Shown one piece after another: positions 27,534 through 51,118 of a DNA stretch of 64,000 bases. This stretch comes from an uncultured delta proteobacterium. GTDB taxonomy: Bacteria > Desulfobacterota > Binatia > Binatales > Binataceae. The notes beneath the pieces were generated by a model. It saw only the letters and a program-made list of their open reading frames with translations, was not told where the DNA came from and made no database searches. Position 1 is the stretch's first letter; each line of letters begins with the position of its first letter. The translations under genes were made by a program, and so were the position numbers. The stretch covers positions 288,001 to 352,000 of the forward strand of contig CAWJET010000001.1 in the NCBI GenBank assembly GCA_963842085.1, in the 5' to 3' direction.

Positions 27534-28175
27534 TCACCGCTCCGCCGCTGTAATCCGGTACGCGCAGCGCCGCGCGCCAGCCAGAATGTGATCGATCCGT
27601 TCGACCCGCGCCTTGTCGCCAAGCACCGAGCGGAACAGCGAGAGTTCTTCGCGGCATAAGCCCTGGCAGGTCGAGGCCGCCGCGCAGATGGGACAATGAT
27701 TCTCCGCCAACAGCATCGAGCCGTCGGGCATCCGCGCGCATTCGGCCATGTAGCCCTGCTCGCGACGAATCTCCGCCAATGCGTGCGCGCGCTTTGCGAT
27801 TGAAGTCCCCGCCGGGCGCAGCCGCGCGCGATACTCTTCGAGCTGGCGGCGCGTCCTTTCGCGCAGCAGCTTGTCCATCCCCGCCTCACCGAACGCCGCG
27901 CGCACCGCTGCGATGATCTCGACCGTCAGGTCGCTATGCGTGTCCGGAAAGCGCTCGGCCGCCACGCTCGTCAATCTCCACACGCGCGCGGGGCGTCCCA
28001 CCTTGCGCCGTTCGTCGGTAAATTCGACGAGGCCTTCCACCTTGAGGCGATAGAGATGCTGGCGCACCGCCATCGCCGTGACGCCCAGGCGGCGCGCGAC
28101 CTGAGCCGCGGTCTGCGGCCCGCGAGTCTTGAGCTGGTACAGGACACCCTCCTCCGCGCGCGCATCGTGCTTCAT
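27534..28175 (-). CDS. SufR-like ArsR/DeoR HTH regulator with C-terminal Cys cluster
   Basis: LGVTAMAVRQHL, VGRP, ENHCPIC..C...C and RRCAY. Confidence 0.88.
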   Translation of the reverse strand: MKHDARAEEGVLYQLKTRGPQTAAQVARRLGVTAMAVRQHLYRLKVEGLVEFTDERRKVGRPARVWRLTSVAAERFPDTHSDLTVEIIAAVRAAFGEAGMDKLLRERTRRQLEEYRARLRPAGTSIAKRAHALAEIRREQGYMAECARMPDGSMLLAENHCPICAAASTCQGLCREELSLFRSVLGDKARVERIDHILAGARRCAYRITAAER

Positions 28176-28205
28176 GAAATGCGATGGTACCCGCCATGAA
28201 TTATT

Positions 28206-28248
28206 AGTCAAGCGAGTGCTTGACTTAGTATATAAAGCGAGTACTTTA
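28206..28248. promoter_or_regulatory. Tandem operator palindromes between divergent regulator and questin oxidase-like genes
   Basis: AGTCAAGC-gagt-GCTTGACT (28206-28225) and TAAAG-cgagta-CTTTA (28233-28248); shared consensus TMAAG-N6-CTTKA in an AT-rich spacer. Confidence 0.7.
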
Positions 28249-28278
28249 CCAACTATCGGGACCCGAGAGGACGCGTCG

Positions 28279-29337
28279 ATGAACACCGATTATTCTGCGC
28301 TCGATGAAGCGCTCGAAATCATGGCGCCGATCGGCCCTGAACTGAACAACGGCTTGTCCAATCACGCACCCATGGCGATCGAAGCGATGTGTGCGATGGG
28401 ACGCCCCGACGCCGTGATGCCGTGGTTCGAGCGCTACCGCCGCCGGCTCGCGCAGCGTCGAGCCCGGGTCGCGCGGCTCACGGATGACAATTGGCGCGCG
28501 GCGCTCGGCGACCTCCGCCGCACCGAGGATTGGTTCGAGTTCTTTCGCAACGAGCTCGAGGAGCGCCCGTGGCCTGCCGCGCTCGACACGTGGGCCGCGC
28601 GGCTCGCGCCGGGTCTGATGGCGGCTGCGACGCATGGGGTGATTCGCACCGGCCACGCAACGCGCGCCCTCGCTCTCGAGAACACTCCTGCGCGCCGCCG
28701 CGAACTGGCCGACGGACTCGCTTACTGGGCCGCCGATTACTTGCCGCTGCCCGCTGAGCGGCACCCGCCGGCTCGTGCAAAGCCGTCAGACGCGATCGCT
28801 GGCGTGCAGATGATTCCGCCTGAGACTCGGCGCAACAACTTAGGCGCGTTTACCGACGCGCTCGCGCAACTCGATTCCTTCCCACCGTTCCAGAGCACGC
28901 TCGACGCAGTCGATCCCACCGGCGACCCGCGCGCATTCATCTCGGACCTGACCGCCACCTTTGCGCGCGTCTTTCTGGCCAACGCCCGCGACACTTACAC
29001 GGCCATTGCGTTTGTCCACGCCGTGACCGGCCCGTCCGCCATTCGCCCTCTCCTGCCGTACCTGCGCGAAGCAACTGCGCGCATAGCACTCGCATACGCG
29101 TGGCAGGCTGCGGCCGCGATGTACGCAACTTTCGGCACACGCGCGGACCTGTCGCGCCTCGATGAGGTCAAGGTCTGGGATCAGGATGGACTTATCGAGC
29201 GTGCGCTCGCATGCGGCGACGAGCACGCGATCAAATTCACCGAGGTCTGTTTACGCGAGCATGCGTTCAATCCGGACCCGGCGTTTCTCGCGGCTGCCGG
29301 CCAGGCGATTCGCGTGCTGAGCCGCGCCGAAGGCTGA
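28279..29337 (+). CDS. Questin oxidase-like (DUF4243) protein
   Basis: GLSNHAPM, ATHGVIRTGHA, GLAYWA, VHAVTG, DEHAIKFTE. Confidence 0.85.
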   Translation: MNTDYSALDEALEIMAPIGPELNNGLSNHAPMAIEAMCAMGRPDAVMPWFERYRRRLAQRRARVARLTDDNWRAALGDLRRTEDWFEFFRNELEERPWPAALDTWAARLAPGLMAAATHGVIRTGHATRALALENTPARRRELADGLAYWAADYLPLPAERHPPARAKPSDAIAGVQMIPPETRRNNLGAFTDALAQLDSFPPFQSTLDAVDPTGDPRAFISDLTATFARVFLANARDTYTAIAFVHAVTGPSAIRPLLPYLREATARIALAYAWQAAAAMYATFGTRADLSRLDEVKVWDQDGLIERALACGDEHAIKFTEVCLREHAFNPDPAFLAAAGQAIRVLSRAEG

Positions 29338-42375: not shown

Positions 42376-42885
42376 CTACTGCGGGGGTTGCGTCACGATT
42401 ACACCGGCGAAGGATGACGCCTGATGGCCGTCGGCAGTCGTTGCAGTCACGGTAACCACGTAGCTGCCGGGGTTGGTGTAAGTGTGGAAAAGCGCGGTCG
42501 GCGGCAGCATCGAAACCTGGCCGTCGCCGAAATTCCAGCGAAAGGTTTGCAGCACGGTTTCCGGGTCGGTGCTCGACACCATGAAGCCGACGGTCAGCGG
42601 CGCCGGCCCGTATCCGGGCAAGGGTGTGAGCTGAATTTGCGGAATGGACGGCAGCATCATGGGCGTGGCCGTCGCAGTCGGCTCCTGCGCGAGGGCGGGA
42701 GTGCTCAATCCGCCAAGAAGAAGCAACGCAACGGCGAACGCCGGCTTTGTCATTCTGAGCGCAGCAAAGAATCCCGGCAGCCGTGCCCAGACGAGCACCC
42801 GAATCCGGGTTCCTTCGCAGCGCTCAGGATGACACAAGGAAAGAGCGATCCGCTTCGCGATCGAATGGGTGCGAATCAATCTCAC
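42376..42885 (-). CDS. Secreted PKD-domain protein (alternative start ATG 42753)
   Basis: WNFGDG, HTYTNPGSYVVTVT; signal peptide MTKPAFAVALLLLGGLSTPALA. Confidence 0.8.
   Translation of the reverse strand: MRLIRTHSIAKRIALSLCHPERCEGTRIRVLVWARLPGFFAALRMTKPAFAVALLLLGGLSTPALAQEPTATATPMMLPSIPQIQLTPLPGYGPAPLTVGFMVSSTDPETVLQTFRWNFGDGQVSMLPPTALFHTYTNPGSYVVTVTATTADGHQASSFAGVIVTQPPQ
42748..42834. repeat. Palindromic repeat family C (GTCATyCTGAGCG...CGCTCAGrATGAC doublet)
   Basis: TGTCATTCTGAGCGCAGC...GCAGCGCTCAGGATGACA inverted arms; half copies near 57286 and 61598. Confidence 0.75.
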
Positions 42886-43667
42886 TGCATGACGATGCCG
42901 CCGTCGGGATGCAGGATCGAGCCGGTGTAGTAGCGGCCTTCTTCGCTGGCGAGGAACAGCGCGGTGTTGGCGACATCGATTGGCTCGCCCATGTGCTTCA
43001 TCGGCACCCGCTGCATCATCTGCGAAGCGTCGGGCAGGTCCTGCAGGTTGGCGGTCATCGGTGTCTTGATGAAGCCGGGGCCGATCGCATTGGCAGTGAT
43101 ATTGAATGGTGCCAACTCGGTCGCGAGCACCCGCGTCAGCATCCAGACCCCGGCCTTGCTGACCGAATACTCGCCGAGGCCAGGTGAAGCGAGTCGCGCC
43201 GCGGCTGACGCGATATTGATGATGCGGCCGCCGTTGCCCGCCTTGATCATCGCGTCGGCGCAGGCGCGATCGGTCAGGAACACGCCGTCGAGATTGACGC
43301 TCAAGACCTTGCGCCAGTTGGCGAAGGACTTGTTGGCCAGAAACGTGATGTCGGGCTGGCCTTCCTCGCCATAGTGCGCGTGGGAGATTCCCGCCGCCGC
43401 GACGACGATGTCGACGCTGCCGAGGTCTTTCACCATCCGCGCAACCATCGTATTGACCTGCGTCTCGTCGCTGGTATCCGCCTGGAACGCGAGCGCCTTG
43501 CGGCCGAGCTTTTTGACGGAGGCGGCGGTCTCCTCGGCGGCGGCGAGATGGCGGTCGGCAACGAAGACGTTGGCGCCTTCTTCTGCGAAACGAACCGCGG
43601 TCGCGCGTCCGATACCGCTGGCGCCGCCGGTGATCAGTGCGTTTTTGTTTTCGAGTCTTAGCGGCAT
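42882..43667 (-). CDS. SDR family oxidoreductase
   Basis: TGGASGIG, YSVSKAG, NAIGPG; the track ORF is over-extended at its 5' end. Confidence 0.92.
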   Translation of the reverse strand: MPLRLENKNALITGGASGIGRATAVRFAEEGANVFVADRHLAAAEETAASVKKLGRKALAFQADTSDETQVNTMVARMVKDLGSVDIVVAAAGISHAHYGEEGQPDITFLANKSFANWRKVLSVNLDGVFLTDRACADAMIKAGNGGRIINIASAAARLASPGLGEYSVSKAGVWMLTRVLATELAPFNITANAIGPGFIKTPMTANLQDLPDASQMMQRVPMKHMGEPIDVANTALFLASEEGRYYTGSILHPDGGIVMQ

Positions 43668-43772
43668 CGAAATCTTCTCCTTGGCGATCTCTGTTCTCGT
43701 GCGGTTGTTAGCACGGCGGGCGGCGCATGAAAATCTATGCTCGCGATTTCGCGTCGAATAGAATTGCCGGTT

Positions 43773-44642
43773 ATGGCACAAGAGCAAGCGGCTACCGTGC
43801 TCGCGGAGCCGACCCATCGGTACGTCGAGGTTGAGGGACTCAAGCTTCACTATCTGGACTGGGGCGGCGATCCTGACAAACACACCTTCGTTTTGCTGCA
43901 CGGCGGCGCGGCGCATGCGCATTGGTGGGACGGCGTCGCACCGATGCTGACGCCGTACGGGCGCGTGCTCGCGCTCGATTTTCGCGGACACGGCCGCAGC
44001 CAGTGGGCGGAGTCGGGAACCTACGGTCCGCCGGCCTATCTGCAAGACGTGCGCGGGCTTGTCGAAAGCCTCGGCGCGCGCGTGGTGCTGGTGGGGCATT
44101 CGATGGGTGGCGCGGTCGCGCAGTGGGTGGCGGTGACGCATCCGGAGTTGCTCGAGGCGTTGATCATCGTCGATGCGCCGCACGGACCGCCGCCGCTGTT
44201 TCGCCGCCTGATGTGGCGATGGCGCCGGCGCTCGCACGGCGGCACCCGGCCCGAGCTGCGCTCCGCCGACGACATCATCAGGAAGTTTCGCCTGCAGCCG
44301 CCGCAGACGTATTTGACGCGGCTGGACGTCGAGCGGCTCGCGCTGCTCGGCGCCGAGCAGCTACCGAGCGGCGCATGGGCGTTTCGCTTCGACCCGGAAA
44401 CGCGCGCGTGGCGCAAGCACGGAGTCAGGATGACCCGGCCCAAGCTCAGGAACATCGCGATGCCGACGCTGCTGATCCGCGGCGAGCAGAGCGCCCTGGT
44501 GAGTCACTCACACGTACGGCGGATGCATCGGAAGATTCGCGGATCGGTGCTGAAGGAAATACCGCGCGCGTTCCATCACGTGCCGCTGGACAATCCCGGC
44601 GACACTGCGGCGGCGATTATCGAATTCGTCGAGAAGCTCTAG
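43773..44642 (+). CDS. Alpha/beta hydrolase
   Basis: LLHGG, DFRGHG, GHSMGG, FHHVPLDNP. Confidence 0.9.
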   Translation: MAQEQAATVLAEPTHRYVEVEGLKLHYLDWGGDPDKHTFVLLHGGAAHAHWWDGVAPMLTPYGRVLALDFRGHGRSQWAESGTYGPPAYLQDVRGLVESLGARVVLVGHSMGGAVAQWVAVTHPELLEALIIVDAPHGPPPLFRRLMWRWRRRSHGGTRPELRSADDIIRKFRLQPPQTYLTRLDVERLALLGAEQLPSGAWAFRFDPETRAWRKHGVRMTRPKLRNIAMPTLLIRGEQSALVSHSHVRRMHRKIRGSVLKEIPRAFHHVPLDNPGDTAAAIIEFVEKL

Positions 44643-44649
44643 CAGGCTG

Positions 44650-44991
44650 CTACGCGCGGAGCAGGAAGTCGCTCAGGTCCATCGCGTATTGGCCGTCGCT
44701 CAGCGTCATCGACTTGGGCGAGCGCTTGAGCATCAGGCGCGAGATGTCCTGCCCTTGCGGCAGCAGGTAAACGATATCCCCCGAGCCCATCGAGAACACA
44801 CGCACGCGCTCTTCGCCGCGGCGTTCCTGGCCGGCGACCTCGTACGAGCTGACGTGAAAGACGAAGCCGCGGGCGCGAATCAGCACGCCCTCGGTCTGCT
44901 CGACGATACCCACGAAAATCCGGGTGTTGTCGTCCTTGAAGAGCCTGCGATCGATGAGGACGATCCGGTCCCCTTCGCCGATTGTCGCCAT
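44650..44991 (-). CDS. Hypothetical 113-aa beta-rich protein
   Basis: AGGAGG SD, clean ORF, RRLFKDD..RIFVG motif. Confidence 0.8.
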   Translation of the reverse strand: MATIGEGDRIVLIDRRLFKDDNTRIFVGIVEQTEGVLIRARGFVFHVSSYEVAGQERRGEERVRVFSMGSGDIVYLLPQGQDISRLMLKRSPKSMTLSDGQYAMDLSDFLLRA

Positions 44992-45033
44992 CGTGCTGTT
45001 CCTCCTGTGGCCGTAGCCTCGAGCAGGATTCTA

Positions 45034-45097
45034 CTCGATCGCGAAGGCTAACACGACGCGGCGCGATCGAGGGTAGTGGGTCAGTGACCCACTACCC
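45034..45097. other. Two adjacent perfect hairpins downstream of the large TPR/PIN gene
   Basis: CTCGATCGCG...CGCGATCGAG (10 bp) and GGGTAGTGGGTC-agt-GACCCACTACCC (12 bp); no U-tract. Confidence 0.6.
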
Positions 45098-45116
45098 GAT
45101 CGGTTGGCATCCGGGA

Positions 45117-48100
45117 TCAGCGGCCGGCCATCAGGCGGTCATTCTGCGGCGTCTCGCTCTGGGCGGTCCATCCCCGCACGACGTCGCTCAGCTCGCGCGC
45201 TCGAATCAGGTCGAGTCCGAAGCGAATCGGCAACGAACGCGGCAATGTCTCGATCGCGTCGCGGCCGCCGGGGCGCGCCGCCAGCCGATCGAGCAGCCGC
45301 GAGGTCACCGTGCGGCGCTGCCCGCGCAAGTACTGGTCGTTGTACATCTTGACGATCAACTCGGCCGCCAGCCGCACCGCATCCGACATGTTCATCGAAT
45401 CGGACGCGAACTGGTCGAGCGCCTGCTTGAGCGGGAACTGGTCGGGATTCCATACCGCGACCGAGCCCGCGCGCATCAGCGTTTCGATGCTCGGCGTCGT
45501 GAACGAGTAGCCCCATCCGGCGAGCTTGGTGCTGGCCGTAGCCAGCTCGGCGGGATCGAGATTGCCCGCCTGCGCGCGCGCCTGCAATGCCGCCTCGGTC
45601 CAGACACGGCGCACACCGAATTCGGTTTTGGCGAGGTCGGCGAGGATCATGTCGTCGGTCCACAGCACGTGCCCCGGCATCGAGGCGATCACGATGCTCT
45701 CGGCGCCATGGCGGCCGAAGAACTTGATAAGGCGCTCGCGGCGTTCTGGATCGATCGAGGCGAGCACCGCGCCGTCGCGCACGCGGCACACCGACTGCAA
45801 TGCATCGGCGAGTCCCTTCAACTGAACGTCGGCGCGCTTGCCGTCGTTGGCGTTGCCGGTGATTGATGCGGAGAATCCGGGCGGCAGCCGCAGCAGGGTG
45901 TCCTCGAACGCGAGGCGCCGAAGTTCGGCGAGCGTGGACTGCGAAATCACGAACTGGCGCGGCCAGGTCGGCAGCAGGCTGAGCCGCCCGAGCATGCACA
46001 GCGTCGCGATCGCGGTCAAATCGAGCACCACGGCGTTGGCGCGCTCGAAGGCTCCCAGAGCGGCTTCGAGCTCTTCTGGCGAACCGGTGCAGCACTTCAG
46101 CGGCGCCTCGGGGCGCTGCGCCAGGATGAATACGGTCTGCAGATCGTTCAGGTTGAGCCGCTCCGCCACCGCGTGGATCGGGATCGAGTTATTGGCGTAG
46201 GTGCGCTCGGCCTGCTTGAGGAGGTCGTCGCGCTTGCCGCTGGCGGTGGCGTGGCCGTTGGCGACGCCGTTGACTTTGGCGACGCCGTTGCCGTTCGCGA
46301 CACCGTTGCCGTTGACATAGCTCGCTTCGAACAGTGACTCGAAGCTGTCGCTCATCTCGTTCCACGGAATCGCGTCGGCGCGTACGTAGCTCATTTCGAT
46401 CTCAGCCTGGCCGGGGAAGCGCGCCTGCCAGTTGATGAGTACGTCCATGTAGCGGTAGGCGTACTTGCTGATTATCTGCTTGATGGTGGCCTGGCGGCGG
46501 CTGAAGCGGCCTTCGGGGAGCTGGAACTTCTCGCCGGGCTTCTTGCCCTTGACGGCGCGCGTCATCGGATGTTGCGTGCCGTACTCGTCGAGCGCCTCGT
46601 CGGCGTCGTTGCCGTCCTCGAGCAGGATCCACTTCTCGGTGTTGGAACCCTCCTCGACGAAACTGACCGCGGCGCCGGGTCCGGCGCTGTCAAAGTCGGG
46701 CACGTGCGGCATCGGGCCAACCGGTCCGAGCGCGGCGAGGTACGCGCGATGCGCATCGACGTTGCCGCCCTGATGGCGCAGTAATTCGTAGGCGTAGGCT
46801 AGCGCCTCGTTGGCGCGGCCGCCGTCGCGCATGAATTGCACGGCCACGCGGCCGAGCGCAGGCGGAATTTCGCGCGCCGGGGGCATCGCATTCGGATCGG
46901 CGACGACCAGGTCGGCCTTGCCCAGGCGAGCGGCAACAATCGAGCGCCGCAACTTGAGCACACGGTCGTCGGGATGCTCCTGGAGCAGTTGCTCGAGGCT
47001 GGCCAGCGCCGCTTCAGGATCGTTGCATTCGAGTTTGTCGAGCTGATCGGCCGCGGCACCAGCGTCGCCCGCGTGATCGGGATGCAACTGGCGCGAGATG
47101 TCGTTGACGATGTCTTCGCGGCCGAGCCGGCTTGCGCAATCGAGCAGCCGGCGCGTGTCGGTGCCGGGCGTGCCGGCGGGCGCGAGCGTTTGCCACAGCG
47201 GGAGCGCGTCACGATAGCGCCCCAGGTCATGGAGTAGCGCGGCCAGCTTGCGCCGGTTGTCGGCGGAGGTGTCGGGCGTGAGTCCGGACAGGGCCTCGTC
47301 GGCAAGCTTCGAGGCCTGATCGAACTTGCCTTGCGCCAGCCGGAGGTTGGCGCGCAACGTCCGCATCGTGACGCCTGGCAGGCGCCCCTCGGCAATCGAC
47401 GACAACAGCGCGTCGGCGTCGTGATAACGCTCGGCGGTGGAAAGCGCTTCGACCGCGGCCGCGACCGCGAACGGAAAATCGCCTGCGGGAATTGCGTCTG
47501 GCCGCGCGATCGAGCGCATCAGCAGCTCGGTGGCCTCCTGCAAATCGCCGGGTTCGTCGCGCTCGCGGAGCGTGACCGCGAGATGGTACTCGATGTCGTC
47601 GCGGCCGCCCACGGACGCGGCGCGGCGCAGCACCTCGATAGCCTCATTCAGGCTGCCGCGCGAGCGCAGGACGATTCCGTACTCGCACAGCCCGTTGGCG
47701 TCCTCGCGCTCGAGGCTATGCGCCTGTTCGATATCCTTGCCCGCGCCGTCGGTATCGCGCAGCGCAATTCGCGCCTGCGCGCGTCCGATCAGCGCCTGCA
47801 CCTCGCTCGACGGCTGGCGTTCCGCCTGCGCGAGCGTGAGCGCCTGGGTGAAGCAAGTCTCGGCTTCACGCACGCGGCTTTCGTCATTTTGCGCGGGCGC
47901 ATCGGGACCGGCAGCGCCGGCGGCTTCGAGTTCGTTGAGCAGAATCGCCTGTCCCAGCACCAGCCACGGGATCGAATTGTTGGGCAACGCGGCGCTGGCG
48001 AGGCGCGCATAACGCTCGGCGCGATCGAAGTGCGCGTCGAGCAGCGCGCGGCGCGCCATCACGACCGCGACCTCGGGATCGGATGAGAGCTCGGGCGCGA

Positions 48101-49031
48101 CGTTTTCTTCGAGCGTCCTGGCGTCGAACGACTTGGGCGCATTGTTCAGCCACAGCGCGACCGCGCGGCCGCTCGACGGAAACTGCATCCGCAGCTTGTC
48201 CGCCAGCGCGAATGCGCGTTCGCGCTCACCGAGCAGTTCGTGCGCGAGCGCCTCGTTGGTGCAGGCGTTCTCCTCGTCGGGCTGCAGCGATTTCGCCGCG
48301 ATGAAGAGCATCGCGGATTTGCGCGGCTCGCCTTCCTTGAGCCACGCGGCGCCAAGATACGAGAGCACGCGGAACTTGTGCACGTTCGAGAGCTGGCTCC
48401 ACTTCTGCTCGCGCAGTCTTAGCAGTGCGAGGCGCGCGAGCTGATACTGGTGGCTCTCAAGAAAAGCCGCGGCGGCCGAGATCTCCTCTCCCAGCGCATC
48501 GGTAGGTCCCGCCGCCGCGGGCTCGCATCGTGCCTCGAGATGAACGACAGCATCGGCGCGCGTCAGCGCCTGGCGCTTGGCCGCGGTGCCAAAATCGGTG
48601 AGGATCTGAGGATACTCGTCGAGCAGCTCCTCGATATCATCCCACGTCAGAACCTCGATCGCCGAGATGCCGTCTTTGCGACTGGCGCGGTTGAGATCGA
48701 ACAACGAACGCTGCAAGCCCTCGGGCCTGGCGGCCGTGGTCGCGATCACGAAGCGCCCGATCGGAAGCTTCAGGCTCGCGGCGTGGTCCACAGCGTCCTT
48801 GATCTCGGCGATCGTCAACTCGCTGCGCGAAGCGCGCAAATCGCACTTGACCGCGGCGAGTCGCGGACGGCCACTGATCTCGATGAGGTTGACTCCCTTC
48901 TCGGCGCGTTCCGGGTCGCGGAACCGCTCGAGCTGAGGGAGCTGCCAATGACGCCGCAGGAGCTTGAGACAGAGTCTTTCGAACTCGTCGGCGCTCCTGG
49001 GCAGCGGATATCCGGCGGCGAATTTTGCCAT
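45117..49031 (-). CDS. Degenerate Mrr-like REase - TPR - GreA/B C-terminal - PIN multidomain protein
   Basis: N-terminal P.P...FERLC...GVNL...AVKCD...FVIATTA...WDDI; long TPR array; HPMTRAVKGKKPGE..IKQI GreA-C-like; PIN VVLDLTAI...AES...LWTDD. Confidence 0.8.
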   Translation of the reverse strand: MAKFAAGYPLPRSADEFERLCLKLLRRHWQLPQLERFRDPERAEKGVNLIEISGRPRLAAVKCDLRASRSELTIAEIKDAVDHAASLKLPIGRFVIATTAARPEGLQRSLFDLNRASRKDGISAIEVLTWDDIEELLDEYPQILTDFGTAAKRQALTRADAVVHLEARCEPAAAGPTDALGEEISAAAAFLESHQYQLARLALLRLREQKWSQLSNVHKFRVLSYLGAAWLKEGEPRKSAMLFIAAKSLQPDEENACTNEALAHELLGERERAFALADKLRMQFPSSGRAVALWLNNAPKSFDARTLEENVAPELSSDPEVAVVMARRALLDAHFDRAERYARLASAALPNNSIPWLVLGQAILLNELEAAGAAGPDAPAQNDESRVREAETCFTQALTLAQAERQPSSEVQALIGRAQARIALRDTDGAGKDIEQAHSLEREDANGLCEYGIVLRSRGSLNEAIEVLRRAASVGGRDDIEYHLAVTLRERDEPGDLQEATELLMRSIARPDAIPAGDFPFAVAAAVEALSTAERYHDADALLSSIAEGRLPGVTMRTLRANLRLAQGKFDQASKLADEALSGLTPDTSADNRRKLAALLHDLGRYRDALPLWQTLAPAGTPGTDTRRLLDCASRLGREDIVNDISRQLHPDHAGDAGAAADQLDKLECNDPEAALASLEQLLQEHPDDRVLKLRRSIVAARLGKADLVVADPNAMPPAREIPPALGRVAVQFMRDGGRANEALAYAYELLRHQGGNVDAHRAYLAALGPVGPMPHVPDFDSAGPGAAVSFVEEGSNTEKWILLEDGNDADEALDEYGTQHPMTRAVKGKKPGEKFQLPEGRFSRRQATIKQIISKYAYRYMDVLINWQARFPGQAEIEMSYVRADAIPWNEMSDSFESLFEASYVNGNGVANGNGVAKVNGVANGHATASGKRDDLLKQAERTYANNSIPIHAVAERLNLNDLQTVFILAQRPEAPLKCCTGSPEELEAALGAFERANAVVLDLTAIATLCMLGRLSLLPTWPRQFVISQSTLAELRRLAFEDTLLRLPPGFSASITGNANDGKRADVQLKGLADALQSVCRVRDGAVLASIDPERRERLIKFFGRHGAESIVIASMPGHVLWTDDMILADLAKTEFGVRRVWTEAALQARAQAGNLDPAELATASTKLAGWGYSFTTPSIETLMRAGSVAVWNPDQFPLKQALDQFASDSMNMSDAVRLAAELIVKMYNDQYLRGQRRTVTSRLLDRLAARPGGRDAIETLPRSLPIRFGLDLIRARELSDVVRGWTAQSETPQNDRLMAGR

Positions 49032-49129
49032 AGTGTAACATTTCCTAACATAATGTCGGGTTTGTAGGAAGGCCCTCAAATGGCTTGGCAAACAGCGGTC
49101 GCTTTCGGCACGCAAAGACCGCTGATAAG

Positions 49130-51118
49130 ATGACTTTTTTCACCATGCTGAGTCTCGACAACCTTTCCAAGTCCTACGGGGGCCGCAAGATCCTCGACGG
49201 CGTGAGCTGGTCGATGGCCGACGACGGACGGGTCGGCCTGGTCGGGCTCAACGGCGCGGGCAAGTCGACGCTGCTCAAGATGATCGCGGAAGTGATCCCG
49301 CTCGACTCGGGCCGCATCACCCGTCCGCAACGCACCCGCGTCGGGTACCTGGCGCAGGACGCGCCCGAAATGGGCGGCAGATCCGTGCTGCGCGAGACGC
49401 TGGCGGCGCTGGACCGGATGCAGGCGCTCGACTTGCGGCGCCGGGAAGTCGAGGAGCTTCTCGCGCGCGAGCATTCGGGGCCGGCGCACGACGCCGCGCT
49501 CGAGGAATTGGGCGAAGTGCTGACCGAGCTCGAGCGTCACGGCTTTTACAGCGCCGAGAGCCGCGCCACCTCGGTGCTGTTCGGGCTGGGCTTCACTGAC
49601 GACGACCTCGGCCGCGACGTCGCGGAATTTTCCGGCGGCATCCGGATGCGTATCGCGCTGGCAAAACTCCTGCTCGACGCGCCCGAGTTCATGATGCTCG
49701 ACGAGCCGACCAACCATCTCGACATCGAGGCGCGCAACTGGCTCGAAGATTACCTGTGCGGGTACCAGGGCGGGATCATCCTGGTCTCGCATGACCGCTA
49801 TTTTCTCGACCGCGTCACCACGCGCACCGTCGAAGTGTCGCACGGGCGGCTCACCGAATACGTCGGCGGCTACTCGCGGTACCTGGTCGCGCGCGAGGAA
49901 CGCTTCGCGCTCGAGCTGGCGGCGTACGAGAAGCAGCGCGAAGAAATCGAGCACCTGGAGAGTTTCATCAGCCGCTTCCGCTACCAGGCGAGCAAGGCGC
50001 GCCTCGTGCAAAGCCGCATCAAGCAGCTCGACAAGCTCGAACGCCTCGAGCCGCCGGAAGGCTCGCAGAAGCCGCCCGCGATTTCGTTTCCGAAATGCGA
50101 GCGCAGCACGCGGCGGGTTTTCGAGCTCAAGGGCGCGGTCAAACGCTACGGCGCGCTCACGGTTTACGACGGCGTCGATCTGACGATCGAGCGCGGTGCG
50201 CGAATCGCGCTGGTCGGCCCCAACGGCTCGGGCAAATCCACAATGATGAAGCTGCTGGCCGGCGTCGAACCGATGACCGCCGGCGAGCGAATAGTAGGCG
50301 CCAGCGTGCAGGCCGGATACTTCGCGCAGAATCTCGCCGAGTCGCTCTCGTATGACAAGACCGGGCTCGACGAACTGAGTGACAGCGCTCCGGGCCGCAC
50401 GACGCCGGAGATTCGCTCGCTGCTCGGCGCGATGCTGTTCTCGGGCGACGACGTTTACAAGCGCGTCGCAGTCCTGTCGGGCGGCGAGCGCGCGCGCCTG
50501 GCGCTGGCCAAGGTGCTGGTGCGCCCGAGCAATTGCCTGCTGCTCGACGAGCCGACCAACAACCTCGACATCGTCGCCAAGGATACACTGCTCGACGCAC
50601 TCCGGCGGTTTCCGGGAACCGTTATAATTGTCAGTCACGATCGCTTCATCCTGAATGAGCTGGTGACCGAGGTGCTCGAAGTCGGCCAGGGGCACGCGAT
50701 TCGCTACCTCGGCAACTACGACGAATACCTCGAGAAGAAGGCGCAGACCGAAGCGCCGCCGCCGTCGTCGCAGCCCGAGCGCTCCACGCCGGTGCATCTG
50801 CGCGATACGCGCGGCAACAACGGCAACACGCCGCATCCGAAGAAAGCGGAACCGCCGAAGGCCGCACCGCCGGCCAAAGACGATCGCGACGCGGTTCGCA
50901 AGCGCGAGCGAATCGCGCGCCAGCGGAGTCAAGTCGAAGCCGAGATCGAGCAGCGGGAGAACGAACGCGCAGCGCTCTCGACCGAGATGAACGATCCGAA
51001 CTTCTATCTCGCGCGCAAAGACGCCGACGAACTGATCGCGCGCTACGAACGGCTGGGCCGCGAGATCGAGAAGCTCTACGCCGACCTCGTCAAGTTCGAC
51101 GAAGCCGCGTCCGCGTGA
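49130..51118 (+). CDS. ABC-F family ribosome-associated ATPase (Uup/YheS/YdiF-like)
   Basis: Two ABC domains (GLNGAGKST, FSGG, DEPTNHLD; GPNGSGKST, LSGGE), no TM segments, C-terminal coiled coil; start 49130 or 49145. Confidence 0.93.
   Translation: MTFFTMLSLDNLSKSYGGRKILDGVSWSMADDGRVGLVGLNGAGKSTLLKMIAEVIPLDSGRITRPQRTRVGYLAQDAPEMGGRSVLRETLAALDRMQALDLRRREVEELLAREHSGPAHDAALEELGEVLTELERHGFYSAESRATSVLFGLGFTDDDLGRDVAEFSGGIRMRIALAKLLLDAPEFMMLDEPTNHLDIEARNWLEDYLCGYQGGIILVSHDRYFLDRVTTRTVEVSHGRLTEYVGGYSRYLVAREERFALELAAYEKQREEIEHLESFISRFRYQASKARLVQSRIKQLDKLERLEPPEGSQKPPAISFPKCERSTRRVFELKGAVKRYGALTVYDGVDLTIERGARIALVGPNGSGKSTMMKLLAGVEPMTAGERIVGASVQAGYFAQNLAESLSYDKTGLDELSDSAPGRTTPEIRSLLGAMLFSGDDVYKRVAVLSGGERARLALAKVLVRPSNCLLLDEPTNNLDIVAKDTLLDALRRFPGTVIIVSHDRFILNELVTEVLEVGQGHAIRYLGNYDEYLEKKAQTEAPPPSSQPERSTPVHLRDTRGNNGNTPHPKKAEPPKAAPPAKDDRDAVRKRERIARQRSQVEAEIEQRENERAALSTEMNDPNFYLARKDADELIARYERLGREIEKLYADLVKFDEAASA

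Follow-up and report, generated by a model that had tools for sequence, protein, structure and literature searches.

What does a conflict-type protein do when the nuclease domain at its front has lost its canonical catalytic residues, yet a bacterial lineage conserves that domain? The question is raised by a gene at positions 45117..49031 (minus strand) of a 64,000-nt stretch of DNA from an uncultured soil delta proteobacterium of the Binataceae (GCA_963842085.1, contig CAWJET010000001.1, positions 288,001-352,000), to which we refer as the window. The gene product, a protein of 1304 residues, belongs to the TGP conflict family, in which a variable N-terminal effector precedes a constant TPR, GreA/B-C and PIN region; this membership is secure. 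On balance we favour the reading that it is a stand-alone TGP protein with a restriction endonuclease (REase)-type head, in which the GreA/B-C domain would dock on RNA polymerase (RNAP), the TPR array would act as a sensor and the PIN domain would cleave RNA, with the head itself being non-catalytic.

The open reading frame (ORF) from 45117 to 49115 on the minus strand is the longest in the region in the ORF list. Translated from the ATG at 49031 it comprises 1304 codons, followed by a stop codon at 45117-45119, and the boundaries given in the initial annotation of the window are right, because orthologues begin with the identical residues MAKFA. The gene is intact, and its full-length orthologues are 51-93% identical to it. 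The initial annotation had also described the order of domains (Mrr-like nuclease, TPR array, GreA/GreB C-terminal-like domain, PIN domain), and structure and profile comparisons run domain by domain recovered the REase, Gre-C and PIN folds. All parts of the gene described below lie on the minus strand.

The PIN domain (residues ~996-1150; 45582..46046) is of the PF20698 type. This Pfam family (PIN-TPR-GreABC) matched residues 1002-1135 with 51.2 bits against a cut-off of 27.8, and Foldseek related the domain to the PIN structures 1o4w, 3i8o and 2fe1 and to VapC 3zvk (probability 0.97-1.00). The acidic residues reported from the first inspection of the sequence are indeed retained in the motifs VVLD (D1004), AES (E1111) and WTDD (D1126 and D1127). 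Among 41 aligned sequences E1111, D1126 and D1127 are invariant (41/41), and position 1004 is an aspartate, or a glutamate in three. The fold and the four conserved acidic residues are shared with VapC-type PIN toxins. Unlike those, the domain is part of a giant protein, has a Pfam family of its own and lacks an antitoxin gene: comparison with neighbours and with genomes of the family yielded no antitoxin-like gene, that is, no small gene specific to the locus. When the PIN domain and the tail behind it were searched against plasmids using tblastn, a single distant match was obtained, on a Nostoc plasmid at 23% identity.

Residues 745-1304 were folded with an alignment of 35 sequences, giving a mean predicted local distance difference test (pLDDT) score of 81.8. 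Ahead of the PIN part the model contains a GreA/GreB C-terminal-like domain (residues ~775-880; 46392..46709), for which Foldseek searches of the PDB returned 2pn0 (E 7.4e-4), GreA 9a7t_B (root-mean-square deviation 2.3 over 76 columns) and also Gfh1, GreB and Rnk, all Gre-type matches having a probability of 1.00. The globular C-terminal domain of these factors thus has the same fold. In sequence the likeness is weak in the window protein (NCBIfam GreA, E 0.076 over residues 785-843; PF01272, 13.4 bits); its homologue P0109 matches PF01272 at E 9.4e-4. Conserved positions of the domain include E793, E805, K856 and R860. In contrast to GreA and GreB, the domain is embedded in a protein of 1304 residues and is preceded in the model by TPR-type helices, with no N-terminal coiled-coil finger bearing an acidic tip. 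These helices belong to a region of linker and TPR array that spans residues ~191-760 (46752..48461). Pfam TPR models matched residues 386-694, each below its own cut-off, and a sequence search of the PDB with the window protein alone found nothing; a profile built from 41 family members matched TPR proteins of known structure over positions 226-655 (E 3.8e-19), in agreement with the array proposed at the outset.

At the N terminus lies the Mrr-like PD-(D/E)xK head, of the REase fold (residues ~8-146; 48594..49010). Residues 1-185 were folded using AlphaFold2 (AF2; pLDDT 77.7), and the core of the model follows the alpha-beta-beta-beta-alpha-beta order of PD-(D/E)xK enzymes (H14-28, E34-36, E49-51, E58-64, H74-85 and E91-98). 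When the head was compared with structure representatives by VIA-align, nuclease domains of Mrr type came out at the top, the scores being Z 11.9 with AF1548, 10.3 with LlaBIII, 10.2 with AspBHI, 10.1 with MspJI, 9.9 with Avs4 and 9.6 with FokI; the Foldseek matches of the model included Avs4 (E 4.8e-4) and MspJI (9.3e-4). No Mrr model in Pfam matched the window protein itself at E up to 1. Homologues of the head pass the cut-off of 22 for Mrr_cat_2 (PF13156), with 23.6 bits for P0114 and 26.3 bits for P0212. A match to the phage family phrog_8991, of no assigned function, was also found (E 1.3e-11), and tblastn searches of 50,697 phage records with the head returned no match. The STAND NTPase Avs4 (PDB 8dgf) resembles the window protein in the fold of its head and in the combination of a nuclease head with a TPR sensor, and relatives of the window head are likewise fused to nSTAND NTPases in P0185 and P0235. 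The window protein differs from Avs4 in having no NTPase module, in ending with GreA/B-C and PIN domains and in a head without the catalytic motif.

That motif was examined in an alignment of 41 proteins, of which 31 are Binataceae-type and eight are alignable outgroup proteins (30-37% identical). The window protein reads G46-V-N48, with N48 (codon 48888..48890) in the place of the first catalytic aspartate (GxD), and K62-C63-D64 (48840..48848) in the place of QxK, as the reading GVN...KCD in the initial annotation had it. All eight outgroup proteins have G-[IV]-D ... Q-C-[KR], and none of the 31 Binataceae-type sequences keeps either Q62 or K64. Position 62 is instead K or R (L once), position 64 is D or E (A once), and position 48 is occupied by D (13 sequences), H (7) or N (11), the window protein belonging to the last group. 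Arranged on a ladder of identity, these sequences suggest that QxK would have changed to RxD/E first and that the aspartate was replaced by H or N later. When residues 1-150 were searched against the whole library, 1,267 representative proteins were obtained at E up to 0.001, and the motif was read in the best 150 of these: 132 have D...QxK, 4 have D...QxR and 14 have other combinations. The aspartate at the first catalytic place is found in 141 of the same 150 and QxK in 133, and the 14 others include at least nine of the Binataceae type (K/R-x-D/E), the rest being fragments or odd variants. This comparison backs the first suspicion that the head is 'probably inactive or rewired'.

Selection on the head was estimated from six orthologue pairs by the method of Nei and Gojobori, as the ratio of nonsynonymous to synonymous substitution rates (dN/dS). 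The ratio was 0.095-0.219 for the head, 0.087-0.331 for the PIN domain and 0.155-0.286 for the whole gene. Because the ratio for the head is this low, the domain is still needed, even with the canonical catalytic residues lost. We give practically no weight to the explanation that the gene is a functionless remnant in decay. The lost head motif and a low-complexity insert of variable length would fit decay; against it stand the dN/dS of the whole gene, the open frame, which is full length in the window and in each of the 10 orthologous loci retrieved from other genomes, and the invariant PIN residues, with D1004 varying only between D and E.

The head could, on the other hand, be an active nuclease whose site has been rewired, the lysine having shifted by two places as Q-C-K became K/R-C-D/E, and we consider this unlikely. 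The change looks like a swap of charges rather than random decay: all but one of the 31 Binataceae-type sequences have K or R at position 62, and all but one have D or E at position 64. At least 90% of the 41 aligned sequences retain E35, and purifying selection on the head is as strong as on the PIN domain. Some PD-(D/E)xK enzymes, for example BamHI, lack the lysine. An arrangement in which N, H or D at position 48 held a metal ion together with E35 and the acidic residue 64, so that both weapons of the family were kept, is similarly doubtful. At the first aspartate there has been further change, 11 of the 31 having N and 7 having H, which does not agree with a conserved metal site; the canonical D...QxK is retained in the large majority of the best 150 relatives; and the window protein has no Mrr match in Pfam. 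We therefore return to a head that is most likely non-catalytic now, because the canonical D...QxK is lost yet the domain is conserved. By descent it would derive from the Mrr-like PD-(D/E)xK family, and we do not file it as an active member.

In other proteins, heads with the intact motif are fused to TIR, SIR2, trypsin, glycosyltransferase, VMAP-C and nSTAND NTPase domains. Because its partners are so varied, the head is a shuffled weapon module of conflict systems. Where outgroup TGP proteins have the D...QxK head intact, we also observed extra modules in front of it, namely a TIR domain in P0108 and an Xre-type HTH in P0110, and in P0106, P0109 and P0114 the head is preceded by ~113 residues of no known family. 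In the branch formed by P0106, P0108, P0109, P0110 and P0114 the head is part of the constant region and not the outermost variable part.

How does this protein compare with the systems already described? The conflict prediction for TPR-GreAB-C-PIN architectures to which the initial annotation referred is that of the TGP family, described as a constant TPR, GreA/B-C and PIN region joined to 13 alternative N-terminal effectors, REase among them, and mostly stand-alone (Kaur, Iyer, Burroughs & Aravind, eLife 2021, PMC8195603). In the model set out in that article, the Gre-like domain engages the coiled coil of the beta-prime subunit, the extruded transcript is the substrate cleaved by the PIN domain, and the head serves as a back-up suicide effector. 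The functional idea attached to the gene at first, that it watches RNAP or a phage protein and cuts RNA, is accordingly not new, because it is the family model already published there (PMC8195603). The window protein agrees with the REase-headed form in the order of its modules (variable N-terminal effector, TPR, GreA/B-C, special PIN) and in being encoded by a stand-alone gene without conserved neighbours. It differs in the loss of D...QxK in the Binataceae lineage, in its vertical descent at a single chromosomal site across seven sampled genera and in a lineage-specific NG-rich repeat linker. In the literature searched we found no paper that deals with the Binataceae proteins, and none on TGP heads that lack the catalytic motif. 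DefensePredictor and the 'embedded defences' preprint were considered as well and set aside, their PIN systems being different ones. The string 'Binat' is absent from eight supplementary files of the family description (PMC8195603), whose architecture tables may still list proteins of the clade.

A statement in the initial annotation that no mechanism was known is out of date. In Escherichia coli ECOR25 the TGP protein Agp and the adjacent pore-former Bab, which share an amyloid motif, are reported to confer abortive infection against T5 (Ibarlosa et al. 2024, bioRxiv 10.1101/2024.11.07.622273). As that preprint presents it, Agp is the only TGP member with a shown anti-phage role, and this role needs the GreA/B-C domain, mutations in which abolish defence. 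Agp and the window protein have the TPR, GreA/B-C and PIN core in common; Agp has an N-terminal amyloid motif and Bab next to it, whereas here the N terminus has a nuclease fold and there is no partner gene. The window protein might by analogy be a sensor only, triggering a separate killer as Agp triggers Bab through the shared motif. This is the only mode of action demonstrated by experiment for a TGP protein, and for the window gene we consider it very improbable. No conserved partner was found, and no Bab-like Bell-domain gene is adjacent: the flanks are an ABC-F gene and a 113-codon core gene, which 59 of the 61 sampled family genomes possess, and these flanks are family-wide genes present with or without the TGP gene, in line with the stand-alone gene first proposed. 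There is also little room for an N-terminal motif of ~24 residues, such as the BASS11 amyloid motif of the Bab/Agp system, since only 13 residues precede the first helix of the head, which begins at residue 14.

To place the gene in its lineage we sampled 61 Binataceae genomes from 30 genera and 150 genomes from the rest of the phylum. Matches were obtained in 15 of the 61, three of them short and confined to the TPR region, and a full-length orthologue is present in 12 genomes from 7 of the 30 genera (one carrier, G044, is unpublished). PF20698 was above its cut-off in none of the 150 other genomes of the phylum. In all ten carrier loci fetched (10/10) the gene lies between the ABC-F gene and the 113-codon gene; one of these loci has two extra genes between the ABC-F and TGP genes, and two have a single additional gene on the other side, between the TGP and 113-codon genes. 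The alignment and synteny comparison found the substitutions at positions 62 and 64 to be lineage-wide, that at position 48 to be confined to part of the lineage, and the gene to occupy one site. Empty sites were seen in non-carriers, the ABC-F gene and the 113-codon gene being direct neighbours in 8 of 10, 107-879 bp apart as measured between match ends. In a tree of five flanking proteins all 11 carriers, along with two non-carriers, form a single clade (SH-aLRT 99), and no fewer than three changes are needed to explain this, such as a single gain with two losses. The protein tree, rooted on four outgroup proteins, has the same clades. The simplest reading of these trees is that the gene would have been inserted once in a subclade of the Binataceae, inherited vertically and occasionally lost cleanly, at least twice. 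Because only 12 of the 61 genomes carry it and it has been lost at least twice, the gene is dispensable.

Such a history might also be that of a domesticated host factor, one that acts on RNAP, for example by clearing stalled or backtracked complexes or by degrading their transcripts, and is no longer immune in function. The single site, the vertical descent and the agreement between gene tree and flank tree would fit this, as would host-like composition, purifying selection on all domains, one copy per genome and a suicidal head without its catalytic motif. GC content (0.669), GC content at third codon positions (GC3, 0.836) and codon usage of the gene are within the range of its neighbours, and its single genomic copy was the one TGP match in a search of the genome itself (PF20698, 55.8 bits). 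Contigs from soil metatranscriptomes are a weak hint in the same direction, since such libraries may contain DNA. We nevertheless judge domestication of this kind decidedly unlikely. The orthologue is restricted to 12 of 61 genomes, two genomes within the carrier clade are without it at an otherwise intact site, and PF20698 did not exceed its cut-off elsewhere in the phylum sample. The genome also has an ordinary GreA elsewhere (a 174-aa frame; PF01272, 71.5 bits), and the nearest outgroup proteins bear TIR domains and intact nuclease heads typical of immunity. The initial suggestion that the gene 'may be domesticated' is borne out only where long vertical inheritance is concerned; the gene is dispensable.

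The soil libraries themselves merit a separate remark. In four metatranscriptome libraries, short contigs 90-99% alike, and mostly 90-95%, cover between 27 and all 30 of 30 bins of the interval 44600-49200. They are evidence that relatives are common in soil RNA libraries, rather than evidence of transcription of the window gene.

We return to the reading that we favour, a TGP protein whose RNase part works at the polymerase. By analogy with the published family model and with Agp/Bab, the GreA/B-C domain would dock on the rim helices of the beta-prime subunit at the secondary channel of RNAP, and the TPR array would sense an invader protein or an altered polymerase. The PIN domain would then cleave RNA, which might be the transcript at the polymerase. 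The Mrr-like head of relatives would serve as a back-up weapon that cuts DNA; in the Binataceae, where it is without D...QxK but conserved, it most likely has a non-catalytic role, for example in DNA binding or self-association. The outcome would be a non-suicidal RNase guard that a clade of bacteria could keep for a long time.

Several points weigh against this reading. An active site rewired around K/R62 and D/E64 is conceivable, as discussed above. The stable inheritance of the gene is unusual for defence genes, and judging by the neighbouring genes and by PADLOC searches of the 28 ORFs between 24 and 63 kb of the window, it lies outside any defence island or mobile element. No PADLOC model fits the protein, a result obtained with a 2023 library and so not evidence against a role in defence. 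For Agp, the preprint reports that a PIN mutant loses defence with the protein being destabilized, so that PIN catalysis is unproven there, and that Agp has no activity independent of Bab, its sole output running through that partner (bioRxiv 10.1101/2024.11.07.622273); at the window locus there is no Bab-like partner.

A more specific history can be proposed, which we hold only tentatively. A suicide-capable TGP immune protein with two weapons may have been acquired once and its DNA-cutting head disarmed stepwise, first by the change from QxK to RxD/E and then by that from D to H or N. The head would have been kept in a non-catalytic form, and the non-abortive RNase riding on RNAP would have been kept across genera in the manner of a chromosomal gene.

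The remaining segments of the protein connect these domains. Between the Gre-like and PIN parts lies a disordered linker with an NG-rich hexapeptide repeat (residues ~881-935; 46227..46391), in which pLDDT falls below 50 at model residues 163-185. The low-complexity NG repeat noticed at first was located by TRF at 46256-46314 as a tandem repeat with a period of 18 and 3.3 copies, encoding NG-rich hexapeptides. The NG-rich insert is absent in relatives of 75% identity or less and varies in length in closer ones, and dN/dS of the repeat linker was 0.26-0.85. The repeat is a slippage-prone disordered linker. A small helical module precedes the PIN domain (residues ~936-995; 46047..46226; model helices H186-227) and has Y945, C980, C981 and G983 as conserved residues in invariant columns. 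Behind the PIN domain the protein ends in a helical domain (residues ~1151-1304; 45120..45581; model helices H401-548, pLDDT mostly >85) that is conserved across the family.

The TGP gene and the ABC-F gene diverge from an intergenic region of 113 bp (49032..49144), the ATG of the ABC-F gene being at 49145. A promoter scan of this region gave one sigma-70-like match, at 49025-49054 on the plus strand, and the scan for promoters and terminators found no more sites than in shuffled sequence. Downstream on the same strand as the TGP gene is the 113-codon gene (44650-44991), and the other neighbours encode a phosphofructokinase, a carbonic anhydrase, a PKD-domain protein, a short-chain dehydrogenase, two alpha/beta hydrolases, YqeY and TonB. 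These are housekeeping-type genes, and the PADLOC searches of the 28 ORFs gave no specific defence match, only generic matches of ATPase type. The initial picture of a gene with host-like composition among housekeeping genes, with no defence neighbours, agrees with this.

The 113-aa protein encoded downstream (44650-44991, minus strand) has no Pfam or PHROG family, and its gene adjoins the ABC-F or the TGP gene in most of the loci fetched. As a partner of the TGP gene it was ruled out, being a core gene present in 59 of the 61 genomes (four of these unpublished) with or without the TGP gene. The ABC-F ATPase (49145-51118, plus strand; ABC_tran_Xtn and ABC_tran_CTD) matched the PADLOC model mad3 at E 4.5e-55. 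Of 20 related loci fetched, 19 have the ABC-F gene in this position, whether they carry the TGP gene or not; the match therefore seems to reflect overall similarity among ABC-F proteins and not a defence system. We also considered the gap between the ABC-F and 113-codon genes as an integration hotspot for defence genes and ruled this out. The one other large insert, 8 kb in genome G002 (L056 4358-12618), consists of metabolic-type genes and encodes an ECF sigma factor with DUF6596, an MBOAT protein, an M24 peptidase, an enoyl-CoA hydratase and a NIPSNAP protein. Because G002 bears 8 kb of other genes there, the gap takes up insertions of several kinds. In genome G023 (L019 6292-7848), genes for a ribose-phosphate pyrophosphokinase and an NTP_transf_6 nucleotidyltransferase are located between the ABC-F and TGP genes.

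Two further ORFs of the window deserve mention. A 451-aa ORF (42882-44237, minus strand) with a dehydrogenase domain overlaps an alpha/beta-hydrolase gene (43737-44642, plus strand) on the opposite strand, and the dehydrogenase domain covers only residues 198-448. The seemingly conserved first 170 residues are probably an antisense shadow of the hydrolase gene, and the true start of the dehydrogenase ORF is likely to be near residue 190. A 250-aa ORF (27534-28286, minus strand) gave weak matches to PADLOC Csa3 models, at E 2.4e-6 and 9.6e-6.

The window gene is a well-supported addition to a catalogued family, and its lineage-specific twist is modest. The TGP family is large, with a single member studied experimentally so far. 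The Binataceae lineage offers a set of natural mutants, with D...RxD, H...RxD/E and N...KxD heads that can be set against the D...QxK heads of outgroups, all with an intact PIN domain. Their comparison could show what role the head has without cutting, and whether the part comprising the putative RNAP-docking domain and the PIN domain acts alone. The locus also illustrates how a gene of defence type can be maintained by vertical descent in a fixed position, away from defence islands, and methods based on genomic context miss defence-type genes of this kind. If the history proposed here is true, the gene would exemplify how an abortive-infection protein can become, in nature, a tolerated, perhaps housekeeping, factor of transcription surveillance.

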